Positions 4,731-64,000 of a DNA stretch of 64,000 bases are shown in pieces. A program made the position numbers and the translations under genes. Origin of the DNA: Gammaproteobacteria bacterium (GTDB taxonomy: Bacteria > Pseudomonadota > Gammaproteobacteria > Eutrophobiales > Eutrophobiaceae); NCBI GenBank assembly GCA_965243205.1, contig CBDEUK010000002.1:993589-1057588 (forward strand), in the 5' to 3' direction. The stretch's first letter is position 1, and each line of letters opens with the position of its first letter. The notes below the pieces were generated by a model, which ran no database searches, was not told the origin of the DNA, and saw nothing but the letters and a program-made list of their open reading frames with translations.

Positions 4731-7700
4731 ATGCATATCATTCACGGTGCTCCAGCGGCATCTTCATTTCGCCTTACAAAATATTTACAACGTCTGCAAG
4801 AAATTGAGCCTAGTATCACGAAGCTACAAAGCCACTATATCCACTTAATCGAATCTGCACAGCCAATAAGTGAAACAGAAACATTACAATTAGAACAATT
4901 ATTGGATGTTGAGAATGCAACTAACCAACCTGTTTCATCTAATCAATTATTCGTAACACCTAGACCGGGTACGATTTCCCCTTGGTCCAGTAAAGCAACG
5001 GATATTTTGCATAATTGTGGTCTCAAGAATATCGTTCGAATTGAACGTGGTATTAACTGGAGTATTGAAACGCAATCGAATGCTCCTTTAGGCACATCAG
5101 TCATTGAAGAACTCGCTGACATCTTGCACGATCGAATGACGGAATCTGTATTTGTTGCTACTGAAGAACTTGAACAATTATTCAGTCATATCAACCCAAA
5201 ACCTTTGAACAGCGTTCCTGTATTGGAACAAGGCAAGCAAGCCTTAGCAAAAGCCAATAACGATTTAGGCCTGGCATTATCTGAAATCGAAATTGAATAC
5301 CTTCTCAAAGCTTATAACGACTTAGGACGTGATCCTACCGATGTCGAACTCATGATGTTTGCCCAAGCTAACTCTGAACATTGTCGTCATAAAATTTTTA
5401 ATTCCGCATGGACTATTGATGGAAAGAAACAAGACGCAACCTTGTTCGGCATGATTCGAGAAACGCATAAAACAAACCCTGGTCGTGTGCTATCGGCTTA
5501 TAGCGATAATGCCGCCGTGATTAATGGATACGATGCCGCCAGATTTTTTCCAAACAATGAATCTCATCAATACGATTACAGTGAAGAAACCGTAAATGTC
5601 TTGATGAAAGTAGAAACACATAATCATCCAACCGCGATATCACCATTACCGGGGGCCGCAACAGGCTCAGGTGGAGAAATTCGAGATGAAGCAGCAACTG
5701 GGCGTGGCGGTAAACCCAAGGCTGGTTTAACTGGTTTTTCTGTTTCAAACTTAAACATACCCAATTTTAAACAAGCTTGGGAAAACGATTACGGTAAACC
5801 CGATCGTATTGTCTCAGCACTGGATATTATGATCGAAGGGCCTGTTGGTGGTTCTGCGTTTAACAATGAGTTTGGTCGGCCTAATCTAACTGGCTACTTT
5901 CGTAGTTACGAACAATACGATGAATCAACGCAACGGGTACGTGGTTATCACAAACCGATCATGATTGCAGGTGGTTATGGTTCCGTTCGTCCCGACCATG
6001 TTTTAAAACATCGAATTCCTGCTGGTGCACAATTAATTGTATTAGGTGGCCCAGCAATGTTAATCGGTTTAGGTGGTGGCGCTGCGTCATCTATGGCATC
6101 TGGCAGCAGCCAAGAAGATTTAGACTTTGCCTCAGTACAACGACATAACCCAGAAATTCAACGCCGTTGCCAAGAAGTCGTCGACCGGTGTTGGGCCTTA
6201 GGTGATAAGAACCCAATCATTTCCATACATGATGTTGGCGCAGGTGGTTTATCGAATGCTCTGCCTGAACTTGTTAGCGATTGCGATCGTGGCGCTGTTT
6301 TTCAATTACGTGAAATACCAAACGATGAACCTGGTATGTCACCTATGGAGATTTGGTGTAACGAAGCTCAAGAACGTTACGTATTAGCGATAGCTAAAGA
6401 AAGTGTTGAGCAATTTGATCAACTGTGTAAACGCGAACGCGCACCATATGCAGTCTTAGGTCACGCAACAGAAGAGCAACAATTAGTGTTAAACGATGAA
6501 TTGTTTAACAACAAACCGATCGATATGCCTTTATCGGTTTTACTTGGCAAATTGCCACAGATGCAACGTTCGACAGAACATGTTGAAAGCAAATCGAGTG
6601 CGATTCAAACTGATAAAATTGAAATAAACGATGCAATAGAACGCTTACTGCAATTACCGACGATTGCGGACAAACGTTTTTTAATCACGATTGGTGACCG
6701 CAGTGTTTCTGGTTTGGTCTGTCGAGATCAAATGGTTGGACCATGGCAAATACCTGTGGCTGATTGCGCTGTAACGGCCAGTGGTTATGGTTATTACGTC
6801 GGTGAAGCGATGGCAATGGGTGAACGCACACCGCTTGCCTTAATTGATTCCGCAGCTTCTGCACGCATGGCACTAGCAGAATCCATTACTAACATTGCTG
6901 CAGCACGTATCATGCAAATCAATGATATTTCTTTATCGGCGAATTGGATGGCTGCCTGTGGCCAATTAGATGAGGATGCAAAACTGTATGACGCCGTTGA
7001 AGCAATCAGTACTTTATGCCAGCAATTAGGAATTTGTATCCCCGTTGGTAAAGATTCGTTATCCATGAATACTGTGTGGCAAGAGCGTGAACAAACAAAA
7101 CAAGTTACCTCGCCTCTGTCATTAATTGTTACTGCGTTTGCACCAGTAGTCGATATTCGACAAAGCTTAACGCCTCTACTTTCTCAAGAAGAAGACAATA
7201 CTGTCCTGTTATTGATTGACTTAGCGCAAGGTAAACAGCGCTTAGGCGGTTCTTGTTTAGCACAAGTGTTTGAGCAAATTGGTGATGAATCACCTGATCT
7301 AGAAAATCCTAATGCCTTAATTGATTTCTTTCAAACTATTCAAATATTGAATGAGATGGGTTTATTGTTAGCTTATCATGATCGTTCTGATGGTGGCCTA
7401 TATACGACATTAGCTGAAATGTGTTTAGCCTCACGACAAGGCTTGGATATCGATATCAGTTTATTAGGTAATGATGCTTTATCTATTTTATTCAATGAAG
7501 AACTTGGTGCTGTCATACAAATACGAGAAGAATCTCTTAATGTTGTATTAGATACATTTAATCAATCACAAAATCTATCTGGTCATGTACATGTACTTGG
7601 TAAACCTACCAACAATAAACAACTAATCATTCATCACAATAAACAAGAATTAAGTAATCATTCACTAGAAACATTACAAAAACATTGGTCCGCTACGAGT

Positions 7701-8600
7701 TATCACATTCAATCCCTTCGTGATAATCCTGAATGTGCACAACAAGAATATGATGCTGTGTGTAATATGGACGATACTGGTCTGTTTGTTAATAAGTCGT
7801 TTGACAATGGTTTTTTGCAAGCTGATACACGAAGCTTTAAACCCAAAGTTGCTATCCTGCGTGAGCAGGGTGTGAACGGGCAAACTGAGATGGCCGCAGC
7901 ATTTGAACGTGCAGGATTTGAAGCTTATGACGTTCACATGACTGACATTATGCAAGGAAACATTTCTCTTAAACCGTTCTCTGGTTTAGTGGCATGTGGA
8001 GGTTTTTCATATGGTGATGTATTAGGTGCTGGGGGTGGCTGGGCTAAGTCGATCTTATTTGATAACCGAGCTCGCGATGAATTTTCTGCATTCTTTGCAA
8101 GTGAAGATACCTTTGCCCTTGGTGTATGCAATGGCTGCCAAATGCTTTCACAATTAAAGGAAATCATCCCAGGCACTGCATCATGGCCACGCTTTGTTCG
8201 TAACCAATCCGAACAATTTGAAGCACGTCTTATAATGGTAGAGATAACAGAATCACCATCCATATTATTTAATGGCATGGAGCAATCTCAGTTACCGATT
8301 GTTGTCGCCCATGGTGAAGGACGTGTACAAAACTTTGACTCTAGTGTGCCAAGCAATTTAGCAATGCGTTATATCAATCATCATGGAGAAGCCACTGAAT
8401 CATACCCGGCAAACCCAAATGGTTCTGAACATGGCATGGCTGGATTTACTTCAGATGATGGTCGGTTCAGTATCATGATGCCGCACCCTGAACGTGTATT
8501 TTTAAGTTCACAATTTTCATGGTTACCGAAATCCTGGCAGGGTTCTGAAGGCCCTTGGATGGCGATGTTTCATAACGCTCGAAAGTGGCTTAAGTCATAA
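4731..8600 (+). CDS. purL: phosphoribosylformylglycinamidine synthase
   Basis: 1289 aa single-chain large PurL. The N-terminus aligns with E. coli PurL ([32 protein letters not shown]). C-terminal glutaminase domain present. Confidence 0.97.
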
Positions 8601-30192: not shown

Positions 30193-30269
30193 GGATCGGT
30201 AGCTCAGTCAGGTAGAGCGATTGGTTGAAACCCAATGCGTCGGTGGTGCAAAGCCATCTCGATCCACCA
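30193..30269 (+). tRNA. tRNA-Phe(GAA)-like, degenerate T-loop, encoded CCA
   Basis: GGATCGG-TA-GCTC-AGTCAGGTA-GAGC... D-arm nearly identical to E. coli tRNA-Phe. Anticodon loop TTGAAAC. T-loop is TGCAAAG rather than TTCGAxT. Acceptor 7 bp then A-CCA. Confidence 0.55.
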
Positions 30270-30281
30270 ATTGATTTAAAT

Positions 30282-30501
30282 GGGCATGTTGGCAAATGGA
30301 TGCTACCACCTAAAACGGTTGCTGAAGTGGTCCGAGTAAAACCGGCAGTCGCCTAAGTTGTTAAACCAGCATGGTTGAGGATGCAGGTTAATGCTCTTGG
30401 TAAGCGGGTGTTAACTGGCGCGCGTTTCCAATGGTTTAACAAGTCAAGAGTAATGCCTTGATTGTGATTGTATGTGGGTTCGATACCCGTCATGTCCACC
30501 A
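30282..30501 (+). ncRNA. tRNA-like element C (220 nt): acceptor stem, D-arm, canonical T-arm and CCA, with an ~150-nt insertion between anticodon region and T-arm
   Basis: 5' GGGCATG pairs with 3' CATGTCC-A-CCA. T-arm GTGGG-TTCGATA-CCCGT. Stem ACCAC/GTGGT encloses a 17-nt loop. Insert contains the GGATGCAGGT motif shared with element A. Confidence 0.4.
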
Positions 30502-30512
30502 AATTAAGATAT

Positions 30513-30636
30513 ACGCCTATAGCTCAATGGCGAGAGCAACAGAATACGAATCCGTTAGGTGTAGGTCTCTTGCATGGATGCAAGAGAGGGGCGCGAGCAG
30601 GAAGCGACAAGCTTTCAACTCCTACTGGGCGTACCA
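30513..30636 (+). ncRNA. tRNA-like element B: acceptor stem + canonical D-arm + CCA, no T-arm, carries the same extra module as A
   Basis: 5' ACGCCTA-TA-GCTC-AATGGCGA-GAGC; 3' TGGGCGT-A-CCA. Hairpin TCTCTTGCA-TGGA-TGCAAGAGA followed by GGGGCGCGAGCAGGAAGCGACAAGCTTTCAA. Confidence 0.4.
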
Positions 30637-30652
30637 ATTTTAAATGTAGTAA

Positions 30653-30727
30653 TGGTCGTTAGCTTAATGGAAAAGCAGCTGCCTTTTAAGCAGCCAGATA
30701 TCCGTTCAAGTCGGATACGACCAACCA
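30653..30727 (+). tRNA. tRNA-Lys(UUU), canonical cloverleaf, encoded CCA
   Basis: Acceptor TGGTCGT/ACGACCA. D GCTT/AAGC. Anticodon stem GCTGC/GCAGC with loop CTTTTAA. T-arm ATCCG-TTCAAGT-CGGAT. Then A-CCA. Confidence 0.7.
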
Positions 30728-30741
30728 ATATAAAAGATTTT

Positions 30742-30827
30742 GTCGGTGTGGCGGAATTGGCATACGCACTGGTTTCAGAAACCAGCGTCTTTATGACATG
30801 CAGGATCGTAGCCTGCCACCGATACCA
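30742..30827 (+). tRNA. tRNA-Leu(CAG)-like (class II, long variable arm), degenerate T-loop, encoded CCA
   Basis: GTCGGTG-TG-GCGGAATTGGCATACGC is a Leu-type D-arm. Anticodon stem CTGGT/ACCAG with loop TTCAGAA. Variable arm GTC-TTTAT-GAC. T-stem GCAGG/CCTGC with loop ATCGTAG. CACCGAT-A-CCA. Confidence 0.55.
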
Positions 30828-30980
30828 AATGTTGTTTTATGAATCGAATTTATAAAACACAAAAGCGTTAGAGATAACATGTTTGAGAACAGCGGTTCAG
30901 GCTCGTGAGTTCCTGTCCGGTGCACTGAAGTTTGAATCACAAAGTGTATACCGTTCGATAAGGACATGCTTTGACACCAA

Positions 30981-31053
30981 GTGGATATAGCTCAGTTGGG
31001 AGAGCACCTGACTCATAATCAGATTGTCGAAGGTTCGATTCCTTCTATCCTCA
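30981..31053 (+). tRNA. tRNA with CAU anticodon (Met elongator or Ile2-lysidine type); no encoded CCA; one acceptor mismatch
   Basis: GTGGATA-TA-GCTC-AGTTGGGA-GAGC-A-CCTGA-CTCATAA-TCAGA-TTGTC-GAAGG-TTCGATT-CCTTC-TATCCTC-A. T2:T71 mismatch. Followed by GAAAAG. Confidence 0.6.
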
Positions 31054-31135
31054 GAAAAGTGGCGGAATGGTAAACGCACAGACCTTATAAGTCTGCGGGC
31101 AAAAGCCCTTGTGGGTTCGAATCCCACCTTTACTA
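31053..31135 (+). tRNA. class II (Leu-like D-arm, long variable arm) tRNA with anticodon UAU; abuts the previous tRNA; no CCA
   Basis: AGAAAAG-TG-GCG-GAATGGTAAA-CGC-A-CAGAC-CTTATAA-GTCTG-CGGGCAAAAGCCCTT-GTGGG-TTCGAAT-CCCAC-CTTTACT-A. A3:A70 mismatch. Confidence 0.5.
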
Positions 31136-31429
31136 CTAAGCCGATGTCGAAAGACATCATTACAACAGGGTGCCGTGAATATCCTGTTTATGAAAGATAA
31201 GCAGTCAGTATCTGGAACAACAATTTATTCATCATGATTAAAACCTGTGTTTAGGTAAGAACCTGTTTTATTACGTGACAGGAAATATTCGTCGTTAAAA
31301 AGGAAAACCACCAGGATAGGTGAAACGAATGATTCCACTTACTTAATTAAAACAGAATATTCAAACGTAAACCCGTTTTAGTTGTGTCAGGTGTCCTGTC
31401 TTTATTAACTATATAAAAGGAGAAATTTA

Positions 31430-55922: not shown

Positions 55923-57368
55923 TTGCAGTCATACTCGCGTCCTAACATTTATCTTTGGAGCGATGCAATGTCTCAATTCGGTCGACGCTTTTTGTTTGTA
56001 AGCGTACTTTTCTTCTGGTTTACAAACACTCAGTTACCCGCATACGCTGCGACTGGCGCATCAGCCACGACCGAACTAGCACGCAAAGCATTGCCTCGGG
56101 GTAGCGTAAAAGACTTCGGCCCAGCTCCTAAAGTTACCAACGCACCCTTATCTAAAAAAACACAACAAGCGCTTGATACTGTCTTCGCTAGCTTAGATAG
56201 TAATGAATGGTCTCAACCACAAATTGATGCATTAAAAACCATCGTAGAATCGGAAGATGTTAGATTAGCCTGGTTGATGGCCGATCTTATGCGCTTCATT
56301 ACGAGCCGTGAAATCAATGATGAATTAATCAGCACTGCTGACAAACTGTTGGGTAGTAATTTCAAAGGATTCGATCAATGGAGTAAGTTAACAGAAGCTT
56401 TGATTGCCTGGGACATCCCTGCTCCACCCAACTACTTAAAGTACAAACGCCAACTGTTTACAACAGCATTACCTGCATGGGAGCCGCTTTTTATCGAAGG
56501 CGATATAGACTGGCGACATGTCACCTGGGGTGGAGTCCGCATTGACGATCGTGAATATGATAAAACAGATGAAGCTTGTAATTGCATTCCAGCTGCAGAT
56601 AACCCAGAAGTCACGAATGCTAAAGAAGCAACTTGGTTAGAAGATGATGACATAGTTTTTGGTATAGAAGTTAATGGTGAGTATCGTGCTTATCCGCGCC
56701 AGATTATGGAAGTACGCGAAATGGTGAATGACACACTTGGCGGTCGTCATCTAGGTATTCCTTATTGTACTTTATGTGGCGCAGCCCAAGCCTGGTTCAC
56801 TGACGATGTACCAGAAGGTGTTGAACGACCTGTGCTTCGAACATCAGGCTTATTAATTCGATCCAACAAAGTCATGTACGATTTAAATACCATGTCTGTA
56901 CTGGATACGTTTCGTGGCAATGCAGTTACAGGGCCTTTAGCCAAACGTGGACTTCAACTCAAACAAGCCGCTGTTGTCACAACCACCTGGGGTGAATGGA
57001 AACGTTCACATCCAGATACCACAGTTCTTATAGAAGAACTTGCACTTGGGCGTGACTTTGACTTTCGCAACAACAGAGATGCAAATGGCCCAATCTTTCC
57101 AATAGGTGACGCCGACCCGCGCTTAGCGGTACATGAAGAAGTACTTGGTATTGTTACCAAGTCAGGTACGCCTTGGGCATTTCATGTGCCTAGCGTGATT
57201 AAAGTGTTGGATGCAGGTGAAGCAGTCACCGTCGAAGATATAAATATCATTCTTGATGCAGGTGGTGTACGAGCCATTAACGATAAAGGTGAATCACTGG
57301 GAACACATCAATCATTCTGGTTTGCCTGGTCACAGTTTTATCCAAGCACTCAATTATGGCCTCAGTAA
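55923..57368 (+). CDS. hypothetical secreted protein
   Basis: 481 aa with signal peptide and a conserved CTLCGAAQ segment. Confidence 0.5.
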   Translation: MQSYSRPNIYLWSDAMSQFGRRFLFVSVLFFWFTNTQLPAYAATGASATTELARKALPRGSVKDFGPAPKVTNAPLSKKTQQALDTVFASLDSNEWSQPQIDALKTIVESEDVRLAWLMADLMRFITSREINDELISTADKLLGSNFKGFDQWSKLTEALIAWDIPAPPNYLKYKRQLFTTALPAWEPLFIEGDIDWRHVTWGGVRIDDREYDKTDEACNCIPAADNPEVTNAKEATWLEDDDIVFGIEVNGEYRAYPRQIMEVREMVNDTLGGRHLGIPYCTLCGAAQAWFTDDVPEGVERPVLRTSGLLIRSNKVMYDLNTMSVLDTFRGNAVTGPLAKRGLQLKQAAVVTTTWGEWKRSHPDTTVLIEELALGRDFDFRNNRDANGPIFPIGDADPRLAVHEEVLGIVTKSGTPWAFHVPSVIKVLDAGEAVTVEDINIILDAGGVRAINDKGESLGTHQSFWFAWSQFYPSTQLWPQ

Positions 57369-57393
57369 AATTAAACGAGTCTATCTCATTTAA

Positions 57394-58341
57394 TTAAATT
57401 GGCATTGCTTCTTGCGACTGTCGTTTAAGATCAGAAATGTTTACTCCCAACATTTTTTTAAATGTTCGTCTAAATGCAGATTCCGATTTATATCCAAGGC
57501 TTTCAACAAAATCTAGGTTAACAGCTTCACCGTTTTTAATTCGCATTGCCGCCATATTCATTCTCCATTTAGTGAGATAATTCATCACAGTATCTCCTAC
57601 CAATTCATTGAAGCGATTAGAAAACGCCGTTCGAGACATACCTACCTCCCTGCCAAGTGAATCAATCGTCCAAGGCTGTTCTGGTTTTGAATGAATACAC
57701 AACATTGCCTTACCAATCCTTTCATCTTTAAGTGCAGTAATCCATTTACATTGTAAGTCATCAGAATTTTCAACCCAGCTTCGAATAGCCTGTATTAACA
57801 ATACATCCGCAAGCCTGGTGATGACAGTTTCACCGCCAATAAAATCACCTGATGCTTCTCTTAAAACTAACCGCACAATTTCGCCCATCATATTGCCAAA
57901 CATATGCTGCTCTTGTTTGATATGAATCAGATGTGGCATTTCGTCTAACAACATCTCACCCGCAGGATGGCTGATCCTCACAACACCACAAAGCAAAGTC
58001 GTCTTGTCGGGTTCTTCAGGATTAATATCCAGTGTTTCATAATGATCGCTCACCTGCTTAATCGGTAATGAAAACAGATCGATCGCTTTTGCCTTTTCCG
58101 AACCTTTAATAACGTGTCCACAAGCTCGGCTGATAAACACCAAATCACCTGCATTTAATTGAATAGAGACATCATTAATTTCCACAACACAGCTACCACT
58201 GGTCACGATATGGAACATACTGGTTCTCTCGAATTCAGGTAACGCCACTCCCCAATCCTCTCCACCAAGCGTAGAGCGACTGTAGTAAATACTGTCCAGT
58301 TTTAGGTAATGAAGAACCTCGTTATAGCTATTCGTACTCAT
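57394..58341 (-). CDS. AraC family transcriptional regulator (cupin sensor + AraC HTH)
   Basis: C-terminal dual HTH (…SLGREVGMSRTAFSNRFNE…LGYKSESAFRRTFKK…). Confidence 0.85.
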   Translation of the reverse strand: MSTNSYNEVLHYLKLDSIYYSRSTLGGEDWGVALPEFERTSMFHIVTSGSCVVEINDVSIQLNAGDLVFISRACGHVIKGSEKAKAIDLFSLPIKQVSDHYETLDINPEEPDKTTLLCGVVRISHPAGEMLLDEMPHLIHIKQEQHMFGNMMGEIVRLVLREASGDFIGGETVITRLADVLLIQAIRSWVENSDDLQCKWITALKDERIGKAMLCIHSKPEQPWTIDSLGREVGMSRTAFSNRFNELVGDTVMNYLTKWRMNMAAMRIKNGEAVNLDFVESLGYKSESAFRRTFKKMLGVNISDLKRQSQEAMPI

Positions 58342-58449
58342 TTTTTTCTATTTTCGTACTATCTGCACTAATAAATGAACCTTAAGGCATTAATAATACA
58401 ATTATTTTATCTAATAATAAACACACAAACTAAACACAGGAGAACATTT

Positions 58450-59118
58450 ATGAAAAACTCAAAGAAAATCACCGTCATCGGCGCCACGGGCGGTTCTGGT
58501 AAAAAAACCGTAGAAACCTTATTAGCGCAAGGTCACCAAGTCACGGCTGTATCAAGAAGTGCCTCAAGTGTCTTTACATCCAATGTAAATTCCATCGATG
58601 GTTCAGCGTTGGACAAAACGGTATTAAGAAAAGCCATTCAAGGACAAGATGCCGTGATCATTACATTGGGTATTAGTGAAAACCCTCTCACGGTACGTTT
58701 TCGTGGCGCACAGAAAACACCACAAAACATCAGAAGCGCTGGCACTCAAGCAGTCATCGAGGTTATGAAAGAAGTCGGTGTTAAACGTTTAATCGTACAA
58801 ACAACTTACGGCTCTGGTCCTTCAAAACATAAATTACGTTTCATGGATCGTTTGTTCTTTAACATATTATTAAAACCACAAATCGATGATACTGAACTGC
58901 AAGATCAGTACGTTCGTGAAAGCGGATTGGATTGGACCATTACCCAACCCGTACATCTTTCGGATGAGGACATAGAAGATGAAAAACTATTTTCATCTCT
59001 GGTCAATGAAGTGGCTAACTGGTCAATCACTCGAACAGTTGTAGGGCAGTTTAATGCTGAAGCGACATTCAATCACAACATGATTGGTAAAACCGTCGCT
59101 TTATCTTCTGCTTCTTAA
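58450..59118 (+). CDS. NAD(P)-binding NmrA/atypical SDR-like oxidoreductase
   Basis: ITVIGATGGSGKK Rossmann motif; SD ACAGGAGAA. Confidence 0.7.
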   Translation: MKNSKKITVIGATGGSGKKTVETLLAQGHQVTAVSRSASSVFTSNVNSIDGSALDKTVLRKAIQGQDAVIITLGISENPLTVRFRGAQKTPQNIRSAGTQAVIEVMKEVGVKRLIVQTTYGSGPSKHKLRFMDRLFFNILLKPQIDDTELQDQYVRESGLDWTITQPVHLSDEDIEDEKLFSSLVNEVANWSITRTVVGQFNAEATFNHNMIGKTVALSSAS

Positions 59119-59200
59119 TACTTAAGTAATATGGATATTAAAAACTAAAAGAGGATTGTATTCATACAATCCTCTTTAAATAAAATGAATCGATACTGAT

Positions 59201-59695
59201 TTAATTTTCTTTTGAAAAATTTCTTCGTCGTACACGATCAACGCGTCGTAAAATTTTATCGTAATCCGTTAACAGATATTCCTCAACTTCCAACTGTATA
59301 GCATCGTCTTCACTAAAGACTTGTTTAAATGCTTCAACTCGGCCGTTGCCTTCAAAACTGATATAACGCCCCTCTTCCTCTTTAATCACTTTAATGCCAG
59401 AAACCGATGGCAAGTAATCTAATAAAGATTCTTTATCCAGTTTACCAATCTTGAGTAATTCATCTTTATGTTTCGCCAGAATCTCTGCACGCTCATTGAC
59501 TTTATCAATCGCGTTTTCTCTATCGATGCAATGGATTGGAGTAATAGAACTCAGCGGAATATACATCATTTCGGTTTTATCCGTATAACGATGAATATCC
59601 GCAATCGCTTTAACCAGTAAGGCATCTCGAAAACGCAAATCCTTTAATTCGGATTTCTTATCATCTAGGTAATCAATGAGGTTTTCTTTAGACAT
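59201..59695 (-). CDS. hypothetical protein
   Basis: 164 aa ORF. Confidence 0.45.
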   Translation of the reverse strand: MSKENLIDYLDDKKSELKDLRFRDALLVKAIADIHRYTDKTEMMYIPLSSITPIHCIDRENAIDKVNERAEILAKHKDELLKIGKLDKESLLDYLPSVSGIKVIKEEEGRYISFEGNGRVEAFKQVFSEDDAIQLEVEEYLLTDYDKILRRVDRVRRRNFSKEN

Positions 59696-59824
59696 ACGCT
59701 AATTATAAAACAGAACTGCCCATATCTGGATATACTAGGACATGTTTTTTTTAATTAAATAATTTTGAACTCTGAATTATATTGACCCATCATATTCAAA
59801 ACACAGAAATTAATAACCTCAGTA

Positions 59825-60661
59825 ATGCGTAGTAAAATCATCATTCCTTTCCTATTTATTCTGATCATCACAGGATGCAGTAAGGCATTTTTTTATAACC
59901 GTCTGGATACTTTGATTCGCTGGTATCTCGATGATTATGTTGAACTGACTGATACTCAACAAATGAGCTTTGACAAGAAATTAGACATGCTACTGAAATG
60001 GCATCGAGAAGAAGAGCTCAAAGTGTATATTGGTTTTCTCGACCAAGTTGAAGAGGATCTCAAGAAAACCATCGATATGACCATTGTGAATAATTGGGAA
60101 GATCAAATAATTCTTGCTTACAAGCGCCTTGAAACCAAAATGCTCCCGTTATTCTATGAAACTGGCGAAGAACTAAATCAACAGCAGATTGATCAATTGA
60201 TTAAAAATTTATGGGAACGTCAAACGGAACTTGAAGAAAAATACTTATCACGCTCTGATGAAGAATACACAGAAATCAGTCATGAGAAGTTAAAAAAGAA
60301 TTTAAAACGATTCCTGGGCCCATTGAATAATGAACAAGATGAAATCATAAAAACAACCATGATATCCCCCAAACGTTTCGACAAAGCTTGGCTTGAAGAA
60401 CGACGGCTCTGGTATACATCACTACAAGAATTACTCAAACGAGAATCAGACTGGCAACAACAATTCATAAAAGCCTATCAAACAAGAATAAAGACGCGAA
60501 CTCAAAACTACAATGAATCTCTGAATTACAATTTGGAAAAGACTAAGCAGGCAACGGTCAAAGTACTAAATTCAAGAACCGAACAGCAGAACCAATACCT
60601 AATACGCGAACTAAATAATTATAAAGACGAATTCAATTCAATCATTGCAGAGAAAAAATAG
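59825..60661 (+). CDS. hypothetical lipoprotein
   Basis: Lipobox ITGC; coiled-coil rich. Confidence 0.5.
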   Translation: MRSKIIIPFLFILIITGCSKAFFYNRLDTLIRWYLDDYVELTDTQQMSFDKKLDMLLKWHREEELKVYIGFLDQVEEDLKKTIDMTIVNNWEDQIILAYKRLETKMLPLFYETGEELNQQQIDQLIKNLWERQTELEEKYLSRSDEEYTEISHEKLKKNLKRFLGPLNNEQDEIIKTTMISPKRFDKAWLEERRLWYTSLQELLKRESDWQQQFIKAYQTRIKTRTQNYNESLNYNLEKTKQATVKVLNSRTEQQNQYLIRELNNYKDEFNSIIAEKK

Positions 60662-60715
60662 TGAATCCACTTTGGTATTAAATAATTAAAGGGCTCAGAC
60701 CCTTTTAATTTCCCA

Positions 60716-61201
60716 CTATATACTTAGCAAATCATCTCTATTGGAATTTCCACCAAAGGTTAAAACACCACTGGTGTAATCAGTACCAAATGTCGCGGCA
60801 AGATTGAACACCTGCACAACAGCACCTCTAATTTGTTCATCATCCAATTTCGATAAAGGATGAATATAGGCAGAATAAACAATATTTTCACTTACCGCAT
60901 ATCGAGCATCCAAAGAGGAGTGAAAATTGGATTCCATGATCTTATCAATTTGCTCTTTTGTAATTTTTGAGTATTCAGCAATAGGAGCGATAATTCGCAT
61001 ACGATCATTTTTTACATCCGAAATAAGATACATAGGCAGGTTTCTAATTTTAAATTGAACCACGCCATTACCACCTTCCGCTTCATCAGCCATCTCTTTT
61101 ACAATTTGTTCCATCGACGCCTGATCCATGACTGAAATTTCCTCAGCATTTCCGTTGATAATAAACACACTTAATAATACTAAAAATACATGCCTTAACA
61201 C
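60716..61201 (-). CDS. hypothetical secreted protein
   Basis: 161 aa with signal peptide. Confidence 0.45.
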   Translation of the reverse strand: MLRHVFLVLLSVFIINGNAEEISVMDQASMEQIVKEMADEAEGGNGVVQFKIRNLPMYLISDVKNDRMRIIAPIAEYSKITKEQIDKIMESNFHSSLDARYAVSENIVYSAYIHPLSKLDDEQIRGAVVQVFNLAATFGTDYTSGVLTFGGNSNRDDLLSI

Positions 61202-61331
61202 TTTACTCTCCTTTTATCGATTTTGATTCAATACCATATAATTAACTATAACGAGTTAATTATATTAAGAAAGTTATTATAATACTTATAATAATTCTTG
61301 CTTTGACGTTAAATATGTACTTTCAGTAGGA

Positions 61332-61589
61332 TTATTTCTTATTTAATTCTTCAATGATATCCATCAACTCAAATGCACAAAATTGCATGATGACGTAAGA
61401 GGCAGGGGAGTATTCAGCGCTTTCCAACTTTTGCGCTAATACAGCCAATCTAGACAACACTGGCTCTACTTTCTTATGACAATATAGCTCTAGAGCATTA
61501 TCAAACACTCGCCTAGCAACGTTTTGGCGAGATAGTAGAACAGCCATGTAAATGGCATCGAAGGCTTGTTCCTGTTGTTCTGAATCCAT
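61332..61589 (-). CDS. hypothetical protein divergent from the XRE regulator
   Basis: Start set at the internal Met (MDSEQQEQ…), which keeps the operator palindromes intergenic. Confidence 0.4.
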   Translation of the reverse strand: MDSEQQEQAFDAIYMAVLLSRQNVARRVFDNALELYCHKKVEPVLSRLAVLAQKLESAEYSPASYVIMQFCAFELMDIIEELNKK

Positions 61590-61630
61590 TCTGCCTTTCC
61601 TTACATAAATATATTTGTGAAAACTACAAA

Positions 61631-61677
61631 TAACCCACATATGGGTTAAAGATTGATTTATAACCCATATATGGGTA
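61631..61677. promoter_or_regulatory. pair of palindromic operator-like sites (TAACCCAcatATGGGTTA and TAACCCATATATGGGTA)
   Basis: Read from the sequence. Two near-identical 17-18-bp palindromes about 30 bp apart. They lie between divergent genes and overlap the XRE gene start. Confidence 0.55.
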
Positions 61678-61880
61678 AAGATCAATACAATTTCAGAGCA
61701 AAACTTGCTAAGAATTTAAGAGCGATTAGAGGAGATTCTAATCAAAAAGATTTTGCTAAAAAGTTAGGTATTAGCCAATCAACTTTAGCTCGTATTGAAA
61801 GTGAACAACAAAATGTCAGTATTGATATGCTCGAACTAATCTGTAAAAGATTAAGATGTCAGCTCAGTGAAATTCTATAG
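61671..61880 (+). CDS. XRE-family helix-turn-helix transcriptional regulator
   Basis: …LRAIRGDSNQKDFAKKLGISQSTLARIESEQQNVSIDMLELICKRL… is a typical Cro/C1 HTH. Confidence 0.7.
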   Translation: MGKDQYNFRAKLAKNLRAIRGDSNQKDFAKKLGISQSTLARIESEQQNVSIDMLELICKRLRCQLSEIL

Positions 61881-61912
61881 TTAATAAAATCATACCTCAG
61901 ACTTTGCCTCCA

Positions 61913-62353
61913 TTAATCTACTACTGGTAATAATAAGCTATCATCCTCACCCAAAGAAAATGAACAAACCCGACGAGCTATCTCTGCCGCGATGCTTGTA
62001 GGAGGAATATTAAACATTGTAATACCATCGAAATATTTTTTCTCAAGCAGTTGTCCTTCTTTCGAATATATTTCTATATCGATAAGTGCCCATATGAGTT
62101 GAACACAATCAATTCTAACTGTCATGATTGATGACCAGTGTTCTTGAGTAAAATGTGGATTTATGAATGGATAATTATATTCAGATAAAAACGTTGCCTG
62201 TACTAAATTATCTTTTTTAGAAATGCTAGATATATCTACAAATCTGCTCATTTCTGGCCCATCGTAAGCTAGCAACCATTCTGGACCTCCACAAGAAGAA
62301 AGTATAAATATAGAAAGGTAAAAAATATTTTTCCGAAATTTATAATTTTTCAT
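61913..62353 (-). CDS. hypothetical lipoprotein
   Basis: Lipobox ILSSC; 146 aa. Confidence 0.45.
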   Translation of the reverse strand: MKNYKFRKNIFYLSIFILSSCGGPEWLLAYDGPEMSRFVDISSISKKDNLVQATFLSEYNYPFINPHFTQEHWSSIMTVRIDCVQLIWALIDIEIYSKEGQLLEKKYFDGITMFNIPPTSIAAEIARRVCSFSLGEDDSLLLPVVD

Positions 62354-62394
62354 ATAAGACTAATTAAATAGATTTAATCTATTGTGATTTTATT

Positions 62395-62925
62395 TTATAT
62401 CTTATGTTTTCGAACTTTAGCGGTAGTTTTTTTTAATGATTCAATAAGGGCTAAGACAAAAGACACATCATAGCTAAGAGATTTATGTTCAAAAGAATAA
62501 CGCCATTCTATGAATGCATTACTTATTTCATTTAATTTATCAATGAATCCATCGTATTTACTGTAGTCACGATTAAACCTTTTGGTCGAAAATATATTAC
62601 CTTTTGTATAGAATTGATTTAGGCTGATTGAATCATCAGAAAATACTTCTTGTTGGATTTCTTTTGGTAATTTCTCAAAGAGTTCATATATACTGTGTTT
62701 GTGTGGAACCTTTCCATCTAGTTCATAATGAAGAGCTTTAATATAAAGCTCAACTGAAAAAGCCAAGCAAACAACATCAACTCCCATGATAGGTAACACA
62801 CCAAATGCTTTTAAATCAGAAGGATATTGTGATAATTTTTTTTCTCTATTAATCAGATCTTCATTACTTTCTTTCAATATTTGAAAAGCATTTAGAAAGT
62901 ATTCGGCATATGTTTGTAATAACAT
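62395..62925 (-). CDS. hypothetical protein (possible HEPN-like Rx4H motif near C-terminus)
   Basis: 176 aa; the EWRYSFEH segment fits Rx4-6H. Immediately downstream of the RT-Toprim gene. Confidence 0.4.
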   Translation of the reverse strand: MLLQTYAEYFLNAFQILKESNEDLINREKKLSQYPSDLKAFGVLPIMGVDVVCLAFSVELYIKALHYELDGKVPHKHSIYELFEKLPKEIQQEVFSDDSISLNQFYTKGNIFSTKRFNRDYSKYDGFIDKLNEISNAFIEWRYSFEHKSLSYDVSFVLALIESLKKTTAKVRKHKI

Positions 62926-63008
62926 TACTTAATTCTCACTATATATATTAAAGGAACACGAATTTAATTTTTTTATTCTAACCCTCAATTCTTACAACTA
63001 TAGTTTCA

Positions 63009-64000
63009 TCAAGCATTTATGATTTTATTAATAATATCTAATATCTTTTTAAAGTTAGTAAATTCAATATTATTTTGATTTTTTCTAATTACTTCATGTG
63101 AAAAGATGTGTTTACCATATTCATTTGTTTCATCAAAAGGGATGTTGTAATTAAAGCTTTTACCTGAAAGCTTTAAATCCATCCATTTTTTATCAAAATA
63201 CTGCTCTATAACAGTATTTTTATTATTTAACTTTGGTATTAAGAAAAAATATAGATTTTCATATACATTTATGAATTCAGAGCCACTAGATGATATTTTA
63301 TATTTTTTATATATTGTTCTTTCTATATCTCTTCCAGCATCGTCATTATCTGCAATAATAATAACCTTTTTTTTATGAGACATATCTTTAAATTGTCTAA
63401 TTGCTTTATCATACTGACTAACAAATTTTTTTAAATCTCCTACTCCACCACTCAATTCTAAAATTCTTTTATTAGTATTTGTATAATTAAAAAATACTAA
63501 TTTATTTTCACCTTCTATAAGTGAAGGATATAGATTACGTAAAGACTTCAACGCACATTTAATATAAATATTATCAGTTTTTCCTTCACATATTATTATT
63601 GGTTTCTCATTTCTGAAAAAATATTTATAGAATAAAAATTTTTTAAAAACCCTTTCTCTTGAATTAAGAATATATTTGTTTTTTTGTTTATTATTGGAAT
63701 CCATATCATTAATGTAATTAAAGTTATCGGATTGATATATAAAACTTAATCTTCCATGTAATTTTTCAAGAGTTCCTTTTTCATTTTCTTTTTTTACTTT
63801 CCCATTATCATCTAAAGTAAGTTTTGGGTAGAAATATTCCCCAGTCTCGAAGACCGAATGACACATGGCTCTTACATTTTTCCAATACTCTTTAGTAGAA
63901 TTTATTTTTTTATTAACTACCAAGCCTGTCACATCCTGTCTAGACCAATAATATTGCATTCTTGTTTTTAAAGAATTTATTTTGAAATCAGCCTTGTAAA
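63009..64000 (-). CDS. C-terminal part of a retron/Abi-type reverse transcriptase fused to a Toprim-like domain; N-terminus lies beyond the window edge
   Basis: Frame stays open to position 64000 (…YKADFKINSLKTRMQYYW…). RQDVTGLVVN matches the thumb motif of bacterial group-II/retron-like RTs. Downstream, a conserved Glu (IIICEGKTDN) and a DxD (VIIIADNDDAGRD) sit ~90 aa apart, as in Toprim/OLD domains. Confidence 0.5.
   Translation of the reverse strand, partial: YKADFKINSLKTRMQYYWSRQDVTGLVVNKKINSTKEYWKNVRAMCHSVFETGEYFYPKLTLDDNGKVKKENEKGTLEKLHGRLSFIYQSDNFNYINDMDSNNKQKNKYILNSRERVFKKFLFYKYFFRNEKPIIICEGKTDNIYIKCALKSLRNLYPSLIEGENKLVFFNYTNTNKRILELSGGVGDLKKFVSQYDKAIRQFKDMSHKKKVIIIADNDDAGRDIERTIYKKYKISSSGSEFINVYENLYFFLIPKLNNKNTVIEQYFDKKWMDLKLSGKSFNYNIPFDETNEYGKHIFSHEVIRKNQNNIEFTNFKKILDIINKIINA

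Follow-up and report, generated by a model that had tools for sequence, protein, structure and literature searches.

The analyzed DNA (hereafter, the window) is a stretch of 64,000 nucleotides (nt) from a Gammaproteobacteria bacterium (assembly GCA_965243205.1, contig CBDEUK010000002.1, positions 993,589 to 1,057,588). An open reading frame (ORF) of 329 sense codons occupies the last kilobase of its minus strand, from position 63998 to a TAA stop codon at 63009-63011, and runs off the window end at position 64000, as the original prediction had described. The frame encodes the thumb of a reverse transcriptase (RT) joined to a Toprim nuclease domain. A gene for a 176-residue protein with a HEPN domain lies 83 nt downstream on the same strand. 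Judged from its sequence, the visible part is the C-terminal ~58% of an RT-Toprim protein of retron type I-C (the Ec67/Eco2 family), and not a part of a defense-associated reverse transcriptase (DRT). Taken as a whole, the locus is very probably a type I-C RT-Toprim retron with an Eco2-like mode of action and with the HEPN gene as an independent passenger.

The open frame is not a product of chance. Over 330 codons it has just the terminal stop, whereas 27 and 60 stops interrupt the two remaining frames of this strand, and the GC content across the RT-Toprim frame is as low as 22–26%. The whole island has a GC content of 22–28%, vs 35–45% in the adjoining DNA.

Family identity of the RT-Toprim fragment

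The fragment is recognized by profiles of one particular retron family. The PADLOC model RT-Toprim_I-C, a comparison suggested together with the original prediction, matches it with E=2.5e-97 over model positions 233–546 of 552. The NCBIfam model NF038237 (retron_Ec67_fus) matches with E=7e-91 and 305 bits over positions 235–570 of 572; the cut-off of this model is set for a whole protein (450 bits) and is beyond the reach of a 58% fragment. Pfam Toprim PF01751 matches residues 134–234 with E=4.2e-7 and 30.5 bits (the cut-off is 23.1). In a sequence search of the PDB, the sole matches were structures of the Retron Ec67 protein (9LM3, 9I2F, 9I2G, and 9S1F; E=1.3e-55), with fragment residues 3–325 paired with chain residues 237–575 of Eco2. 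A search of 5.8 billion proteins returned 426 homologs at E<=1e-10, and the closest of them is only 47% identical to the fragment. The full-length homologs have 546–576 residues and an N-terminal RVT_1 domain in each; the name “retron Ec67 family RNA-directed DNA polymerase/endonuclease” is attached to several of them.

We aligned the fragment with 26 full-length homologs (27 sequences in total). It is collinear with the family through to the C-terminus and retains 53 of the 56 positions conserved at >=90% among the homologs. Invariant columns include S19, Q21, V23, T24, G25, E138, G139, T141, D142, D217, and D219. The alignment bears out both motifs that had been read from the sequence, namely the thumb motif RQDVTGLVVN (residues 19–29 with the preceding serine) and the Toprim-like Glu...DxD spacing, which proved to be EGKTD and DND within the PF01751 match. 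The Toprim catalytic tetrad E138/D142/D217/D219 is thus intact and shares its reading frame with the RT thumb. One of the signatures that define retron RTs is the VTG triplet of “region Y” (PMC7736814), present here inside the thumb motif.

The neighboring retron types differ from the fragment in their effectors. Types I-C, XI, and XII share one RT clade (PMC7736814), and the thumb segment also matches the PADLOC models RT-TIR_XII and RT-Protease_XI with E~1e-14. Types XI (RT-protease) and XII (RT-TIR) are also fusions of an RT and an effector in a single polypeptide (PMC7736814). However, the effector here is Toprim rather than a protease or TIR, and the type I-C models match better by ~80 orders of magnitude. 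The Toprim fold with Glu and DxD is likewise found in RNase M5 and in the OLD-like ATPase-Toprim proteins of types I-B1/I-B2 (Eco8). The fragment matches them weakly (RNase M5, E=8e-5; OLD-like TOPRIM, E=0.12). In types I-B1/I-B2 Toprim is carried by a separate ATPase protein, unlike the RT fusion of the fragment, and the type I-C Toprim is a lineage of its own (PMC7736814).

Subtypes I-C1 and I-C3 are marked by EGxxD and DxD, and subtype I-C2 by DxE in motif V (PMC7736814). Since motif V of the fragment reads DND, subtype I-C2 is excluded; the DxD signature would fit both I-C1 and I-C3. Therefore, “retron/DRT-like” in the original prediction can be narrowed: PADLOC, NCBIfam, and the PDB agree on a type I-C retron, and the DRT half of the proposal is to be dropped. 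The gene is a new, rather divergent copy (<=47% identity) of a system that is already characterized structurally and mechanistically. Coordinates of the described features are given in Table 1.

Table 1. Features of the RT-Toprim locus and other features of the window
Feature	Position	Strand	Evidence
3' part of retron type I-C RT-Toprim gene (329 codons + TAA)	63009..64000	-	profile, PDB, and homolog matches
RT thumb and linker, fragment residues 1 to ~130	63609..63998	-	alignment to Eco2 (~237 up to Toprim) and 26 homologs
SRQDVTGLVVN, residues 19-29, retron “region Y”, VTG triplet (RT7/thumb)	63912..63944	-	27-sequence alignment
Toprim nuclease domain, fragment residues 134-234	63297..63599	-	Pfam PF01751
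Toprim motif IV EGKTD, residues 138-142 (E138, D142) = Eco2 E374/D378	63573..63587	-	alignment
Toprim motif V DND, residues 217-219 (D217, D219) = Eco2 D460/D462	63342..63350	-	alignment
HEPN-fold protein, 176 residues, neighbor outside the retron	62395..62925	-	Pfam HEPN PF05168
RYSFEH (Rx4H string), HEPN-protein residues 142-147	62485..62502	-	sole Rx4-6H string in the ORF
146-residue lipoprotein-like ORF	61913-62353	-	Pfam Adhesin_E, E=6e-8
XRE/HTH_3 gene	61653..61880	+	Pfam, E=1e-12
Two palindromic boxes	61629-61682		
117-residue ORF	61332..61685	-	
tRNA cluster (Phe-GAA, Lys-TTT, Leu-CAG, Met-CAT, Ile-TAT)	30193-31136	+	ARAGORN
tRNA-like match, 121 nt	30513-30633		Rfam
1289-residue ORF	4731-8600		

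The missing 5' part and the predicted upstream noncoding RNA

According to the alignment with the 26 homologs, the fragment lacks 208–242 N-terminal residues (median 233.5). The catalytic YADD is placed ~40 residues before the fragment start, which agrees with the expectation that the RT catalytic motifs lie beyond position 64000.

A noncoding RNA (ncRNA) of the msr/msd kind had also been expected there. No Rfam family matches window positions 56000–64000 at E<=1, and no retron RNA family of Rfam 15 was found at the gathering threshold in the 12 related loci scanned. Since Rfam evidently does not cover the type I-C ncRNA, we built a covariance model of our own. In the three closest relatives checked (L109, L110, and L111) an inverted repeat of 13–14 nt with arms ~100 nt apart is located upstream of the RT start; it ends ~28 nt before this start in L109 and L110. 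Compensatory changes between the three loci are seen in the repeat, i.e., in the 13-bp a1/a2 stem. The model built from these loci (R1) includes 133 positions and 37 pairs.

When R1 was run on another 60 RT-Toprim loci, 57 of them showed a match that lies upstream of the gene on its strand and spans the full length of the model, with E values between 1e-16 and 3e-4. On the R1 alignment, 89% of cells are paired, compared with 67% after shuffling and 33–44% with the partners slid; the alignment is fitted to the model and pairing is thereby somewhat inflated, but the slid controls argue against an artefact. Double changes occur at all 13 a1/a2 pairs and at six of the seven pairs of the first msr hairpin. 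The common layout of the type I-C ncRNA consists of the 13-bp a1/a2 stem, the 7-bp msr hairpin, and the conserved GCATAAGAG preceding a2, and the length in the relatives is 128–153 nt (median 140). The ncRNA can thus be modelled with strong covariation over 57 loci, and this gives a test for the flank beyond the window.

The distance between the ncRNA and the gene is stable. In 56 of the 57 loci the 3' end of the ncRNA lies 670–806 nt (median 721) upstream of the codon that matches the first codon of the fragment; relative to the start of the tblastn match in each locus (L001–L061), the ncRNA sits ~700–900 nt upstream. Because the spacing is constant in relatives, positions beyond the window can be predicted: on the minus strand, the RT should start near 64,620–64,725 and the ncRNA should lie at ~64,680–64,930. 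R1 has no match inside the window, as this geometry predicts, and in the relatives the ncRNA is immediately upstream of the gene. The 5' part and the ncRNA are probably intact in the source genome.

Comparison with Eco2 and the proposed mode of action

Eco2 (Ec67, type I-C1, Escherichia coli; PDB 9I2F/9I2G/9S1F and 9LM3) is a single-gene retron, and type I-C has been described as a single-gene system (PMC12916289). The RT-Toprim protein of Eco2 assembles with its multicopy single-stranded DNA (msDNA) at a 3:3 ratio, and in this complex the msDNA encloses the Toprim domain like a cage (PMC12916289; PMC12405507). The phage nuclease DenB initiates msDNA decay; the freed Toprim then cuts tRNA/RNA, and translation stops (PMC12916289; PMC12405507). 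Residues E374/D378/D460/D462 are those mutated in the catalytically dead dTOPRIM variant (PMC12916289). msDNA synthesis and Toprim-dependent phage defense are known for Eco2 only (PMC12916289, PMC12405507).

The fragment has the same order of RT thumb, linker, and C-terminal Toprim as Eco2. The VTG triplet is common to both, the tetrad of Eco2 corresponds to E138/D142/D217/D219 of the fragment, and the layout with the ncRNA followed by the gene is common to the relatives of the fragment. The differences are as follows. The sequences are distant, with 47% identity even to the nearest database protein of the fragment. The host DNA at this locus is very AT-rich, and the window provides no evidence of a prophage context. 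Finally, the N-terminal RT and the ncRNA lie beyond the window, so that only the 3' 58% of the gene is read here.

The Eco2 mechanism is the most likely one for this gene, with every biochemical step drawn from homology. The N-terminal RT would copy an msr/msd RNA of ~140 nt, encoded upstream of the gene, into msDNA, with a branching G as the starting point. The msDNA would remain bound and keep the Toprim domain in an inactive oligomer. During infection a DenB-type phage nuclease would degrade the msDNA, and the released Toprim would cut tRNA/RNA, switch translation off, and abort the infection.

The HEPN neighbor

The suggestion that the downstream ORF is HEPN-like was correct with respect to the fold. 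Pfam HEPN PF05168 matches the 176-residue ORF with E=2.2e-8, eight of the 13 family members match this profile, and an AlphaFold2 model from the 13-sequence alignment has a mean pLDDT (predicted local distance difference test) of 80. The HEPN alpha-helical fold therefore holds. The proposed Rx4H motif is present once, as RYSFEH, but its histidine is not conserved: position 147 is S, T, F, or A in all 12 homologs, and His is found only in the window protein. Positions W141, R142, Y143, and E146 are conserved at >=90% in the subfamily (R142 is nearly invariant), and E59, K63, and H77 are invariant. Thus, Rx4-6H is not a conserved catalytic motif of this subfamily. Since the active site seems to be non-canonical, an RNase function of the protein is uncertain.

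The ORF has no match in PADLOC (E<=1), NCBIfam, or PHROG, and neither its sequence nor its profile matches a PDB chain. The subfamily is not included in PADLOC 2023. It is small, with 13 word-index matches; an exhaustive profile search returned 23 cluster representatives at E<=1e-30, 210 at E<=1e-10, and 2,374 at E<=1e-3, where the subfamily merges into the broad HEPN superfamily.

Two known kinds of HEPN system were compared with the pair of genes. HepS of Gifsy-1 and the HEPN-MNT toxins resemble the subfamily in their small size and in their occurrence in mobile or defense islands, but the canonical Rx4-6H histidine is not conserved in the window subfamily. A HEPN-MNT module was rejected, as there is no adjacent MNT gene; the HEPN gene is flanked by the RT-Toprim gene and by a gene for an Adhesin_E-like lipoprotein. 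Type IX retrons (the Retron-Kva2 class) likewise have a HEPN protein beside a retron RT, and their HEPN effectors also have no canonical His (PMC7736814). However, type IX combines HEPN with a clade-7 RT and a winged-helix protein, whereas the RT of the fragment is of clade 8 (type I-C) and a winged-helix gene is not adjacent. A type IX retron was therefore rejected as well: the RT is of type I-C, and the HEPN ORF has no PADLOC match at E<=1 with retron effector models included.

The association of the two genes was assessed from both sides. Around 80 related RT loci, no HEPN homolog is encoded at a distance of up to 6 kb. A tblastn search of these loci with the HEPN protein, the lipoprotein, the product of the 117-residue ORF, and the helix-turn-helix (HTH) protein gave a best E of 0.027 (the lipoprotein), while the best value for HEPN was 3.4. 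The neighbors of the three closest RT relatives (a protein of 180 residues without assignment, RhuM, and Shedu SduA) are unrelated to HEPN; this includes the 180-residue ORF downstream of the close relative P0003, which is 45% identical to the fragment. The downstream ORFs in 55 RT relatives have nothing in common except split Toprim halves, and none of them is related to the HEPN protein of the window. The relatives thus have a single protein-coding gene and no conserved accessory effector. Relatives of the RT-Toprim gene adjoin Shedu and RhuM genes, and their defense-island contexts vary.

Conversely, the 28 loci with HEPN homologs (L081–L108, e.g., L081:6001-6528, L088:5995-6528, and L085:6001-6492) contain no type I-C RT according to tblastn with RT-Toprim proteins, and no conserved partner was found in the 20 of these loci with clustered neighboring ORFs. 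The HEPN homologs occur after QatABCD and a Hypoth_Ymh gene; after an array of a UG13a DRT, HsdM, mREase, and Mrr (L088); between HsdR and RhuM; among arrayed small uncharacterized genes beside a ThsB-TIR-like gene; and directly after integrases. In at least six of the loci examined, members of the subfamily follow integrase, restriction, or other defense genes, and in three (L085, L090, and L102) the stop codon of the preceding integrase gene and the start codon of the HEPN homolog abut. The only RT found near any HEPN homolog is the UG13a DRT of L088; it is not a retron RT and is located ~3 kb away in a restriction-modification/Mrr island.

The most economical reading is that the HEPN gene is an independent defense-island passenger in the same low-GC island. 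It may be a stand-alone gene for defense or for a toxin, comparable to HepS (PMC13043305). An uncharacterized stand-alone defense gene with a non-canonical active site (E59, K63, H77, R142, and E146) is a more likely role for the subfamily than coupling to the retron.

Alternative explanations

Several points weigh against an intact retron of the Eco2 kind. The RT palm, the NAxxH motif, and the ncRNA all fall beyond position 64000, i.e., outside the window, and the exact 41-mer from positions 63960–64000 has no match in collections of genome, metagenome, and viral contigs. In the HMMER alignment a gap of 12 residues lies opposite the trimer-contact loop of Eco2 (residues 325–347), and this segment is poorly conserved; an Eco2-type trimer is therefore not assured. 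The collection of 5.8 billion proteins does not contain the product of the RT-Toprim gene, the best match having 47% identity. Additionally, in six of 55 related loci from genome_contigs (L037, L040, L046, L052, L058, and L059) the gene is broken into one ORF for the RT and another for Toprim; these are either frameshift pseudogenes or assembly errors in metagenome-assembled genomes. The last two observations would suit a retron remnant, i.e., a recent pseudogene with an intact Toprim-thumb part and a disruption upstream of 64000 (a frameshift, an insertion sequence, or a loss of the RT palm or the ncRNA), all the more as the HEPN protein and six of the nine window ORFs looked up do occur in the protein collection, from the same contig as the RT-Toprim gene. 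The missing protein could mean a pseudogene or a gene left unannotated in the deposited record, but could equally stem from an omission from the collection, and we did not accept it as proof of pseudogenization. Against a remnant, 329 codons are open in DNA with 24% GC, in which the other frames carry 27–60 stops, and 53 of the 56 conserved positions are retained together with all catalytic residues. Any disruption would have to be very recent. An intact gene is supported by a frame that stays open this long in AT-rich DNA and by conserved residues that are nearly all kept, and we regard a remnant as unlikely.

The HEPN gene could make the locus a two-gene variant, in which HEPN is a co-transcribed second RNase effector or a regulator and which would represent a new type I-C subtype. 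The genes share the strand and the low-GC patch and are separated by 83 nt; a scan revealed no terminator-like site between them, so that co-transcription is possible, although this counts for little. HEPN effectors with no canonical His are also used by type IX retrons (PMC7736814). All comparative data point the other way, however: there is no HEPN homolog near the 80 RT loci or beside the three closest relatives, the 28 HEPN loci have neither a type I-C RT nor a common neighbor, and the HEPN homologs follow QatABCD, Mrr, HsdR, or integrases instead. The HEPN protein has no PADLOC match to retron HEPN models, and a second gene would not fit the description of type I-C as a single-gene system (PMC12916289). 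We consider a new two-gene subtype highly improbable; a two-effector variant private to this lineage, with HEPN co-transcribed as an msDNA-controlled second RNase or regulator, is very unlikely. The status of a novel variant was rejected, since the HEPN neighbor is the sole candidate distinguishing feature and fails the co-occurrence tests. It is also barely conceivable that the locus is no retron at all, and that an RT of the DRT, UG, or Abi class or some other Toprim nuclease merely resembles the Ec67 family. The RT class does rest on ~130 thumb residues and the fusion architecture; yet the top PADLOC matches are all retron models, the RT part matches no DRT, UG, or Abi model, the retron-specific VTG triplet is present, and the match to Eco2 extends end to end across the thumb, linker, and Toprim. 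A type I-C retron beside an independent HEPN gene therefore remains our preferred reading.

Significance

The founding member of the family, Eco2, has cryo-electron microscopy structures as well as a defined trigger and target. Another type I-C member adds little, since Eco2 is already defined structurally and mechanistically. The present gene is of modest use as a divergent copy (none of 5.8 billion proteins is more than 47% identical to it) whose genome has no close relatives. The sole routes to novelty are the unlikely coupling to HEPN or the HEPN subfamily itself. The latter recurs in defense islands, is not in PADLOC (2023), and has no canonical catalytic His; it is a possible candidate for a separate study.

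Other features of the window

At 90% identity, singleton clusters are formed by the HEPN protein and by six of nine window ORFs that were looked up, the 1289-residue ORF among them; all come from one 2.33 Mb NCBI/ENA contig. The remaining three ORFs, as tested, are absent from the protein collection, which also contains no close relative of the source genome.

The tRNA cluster includes five genes called by ARAGORN, to which Rfam adds a tRNA-like match not called by that program. Over the whole window, tRNAs are the only Rfam matches.

Within the low-GC patch, the 146-residue ORF follows the HEPN gene on that gene's strand after a gap of 41 nt. Its product has an N-terminal hydrophobic stretch followed by Cys and is lipoprotein-like by eye; it has no match in PADLOC, NCBIfam, or PHROG.

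Two direct copies of the palindromic box ATAACCCAyATATGGGTwAAAGAT are spaced ~30 nt apart between the divergent 117-residue ORF and the HTH gene. The likely ATG of the HTH gene (position 61668) is inside the second box, and the first box was also flagged by the terminator scan. The pair looks like candidate operators for autoregulation.
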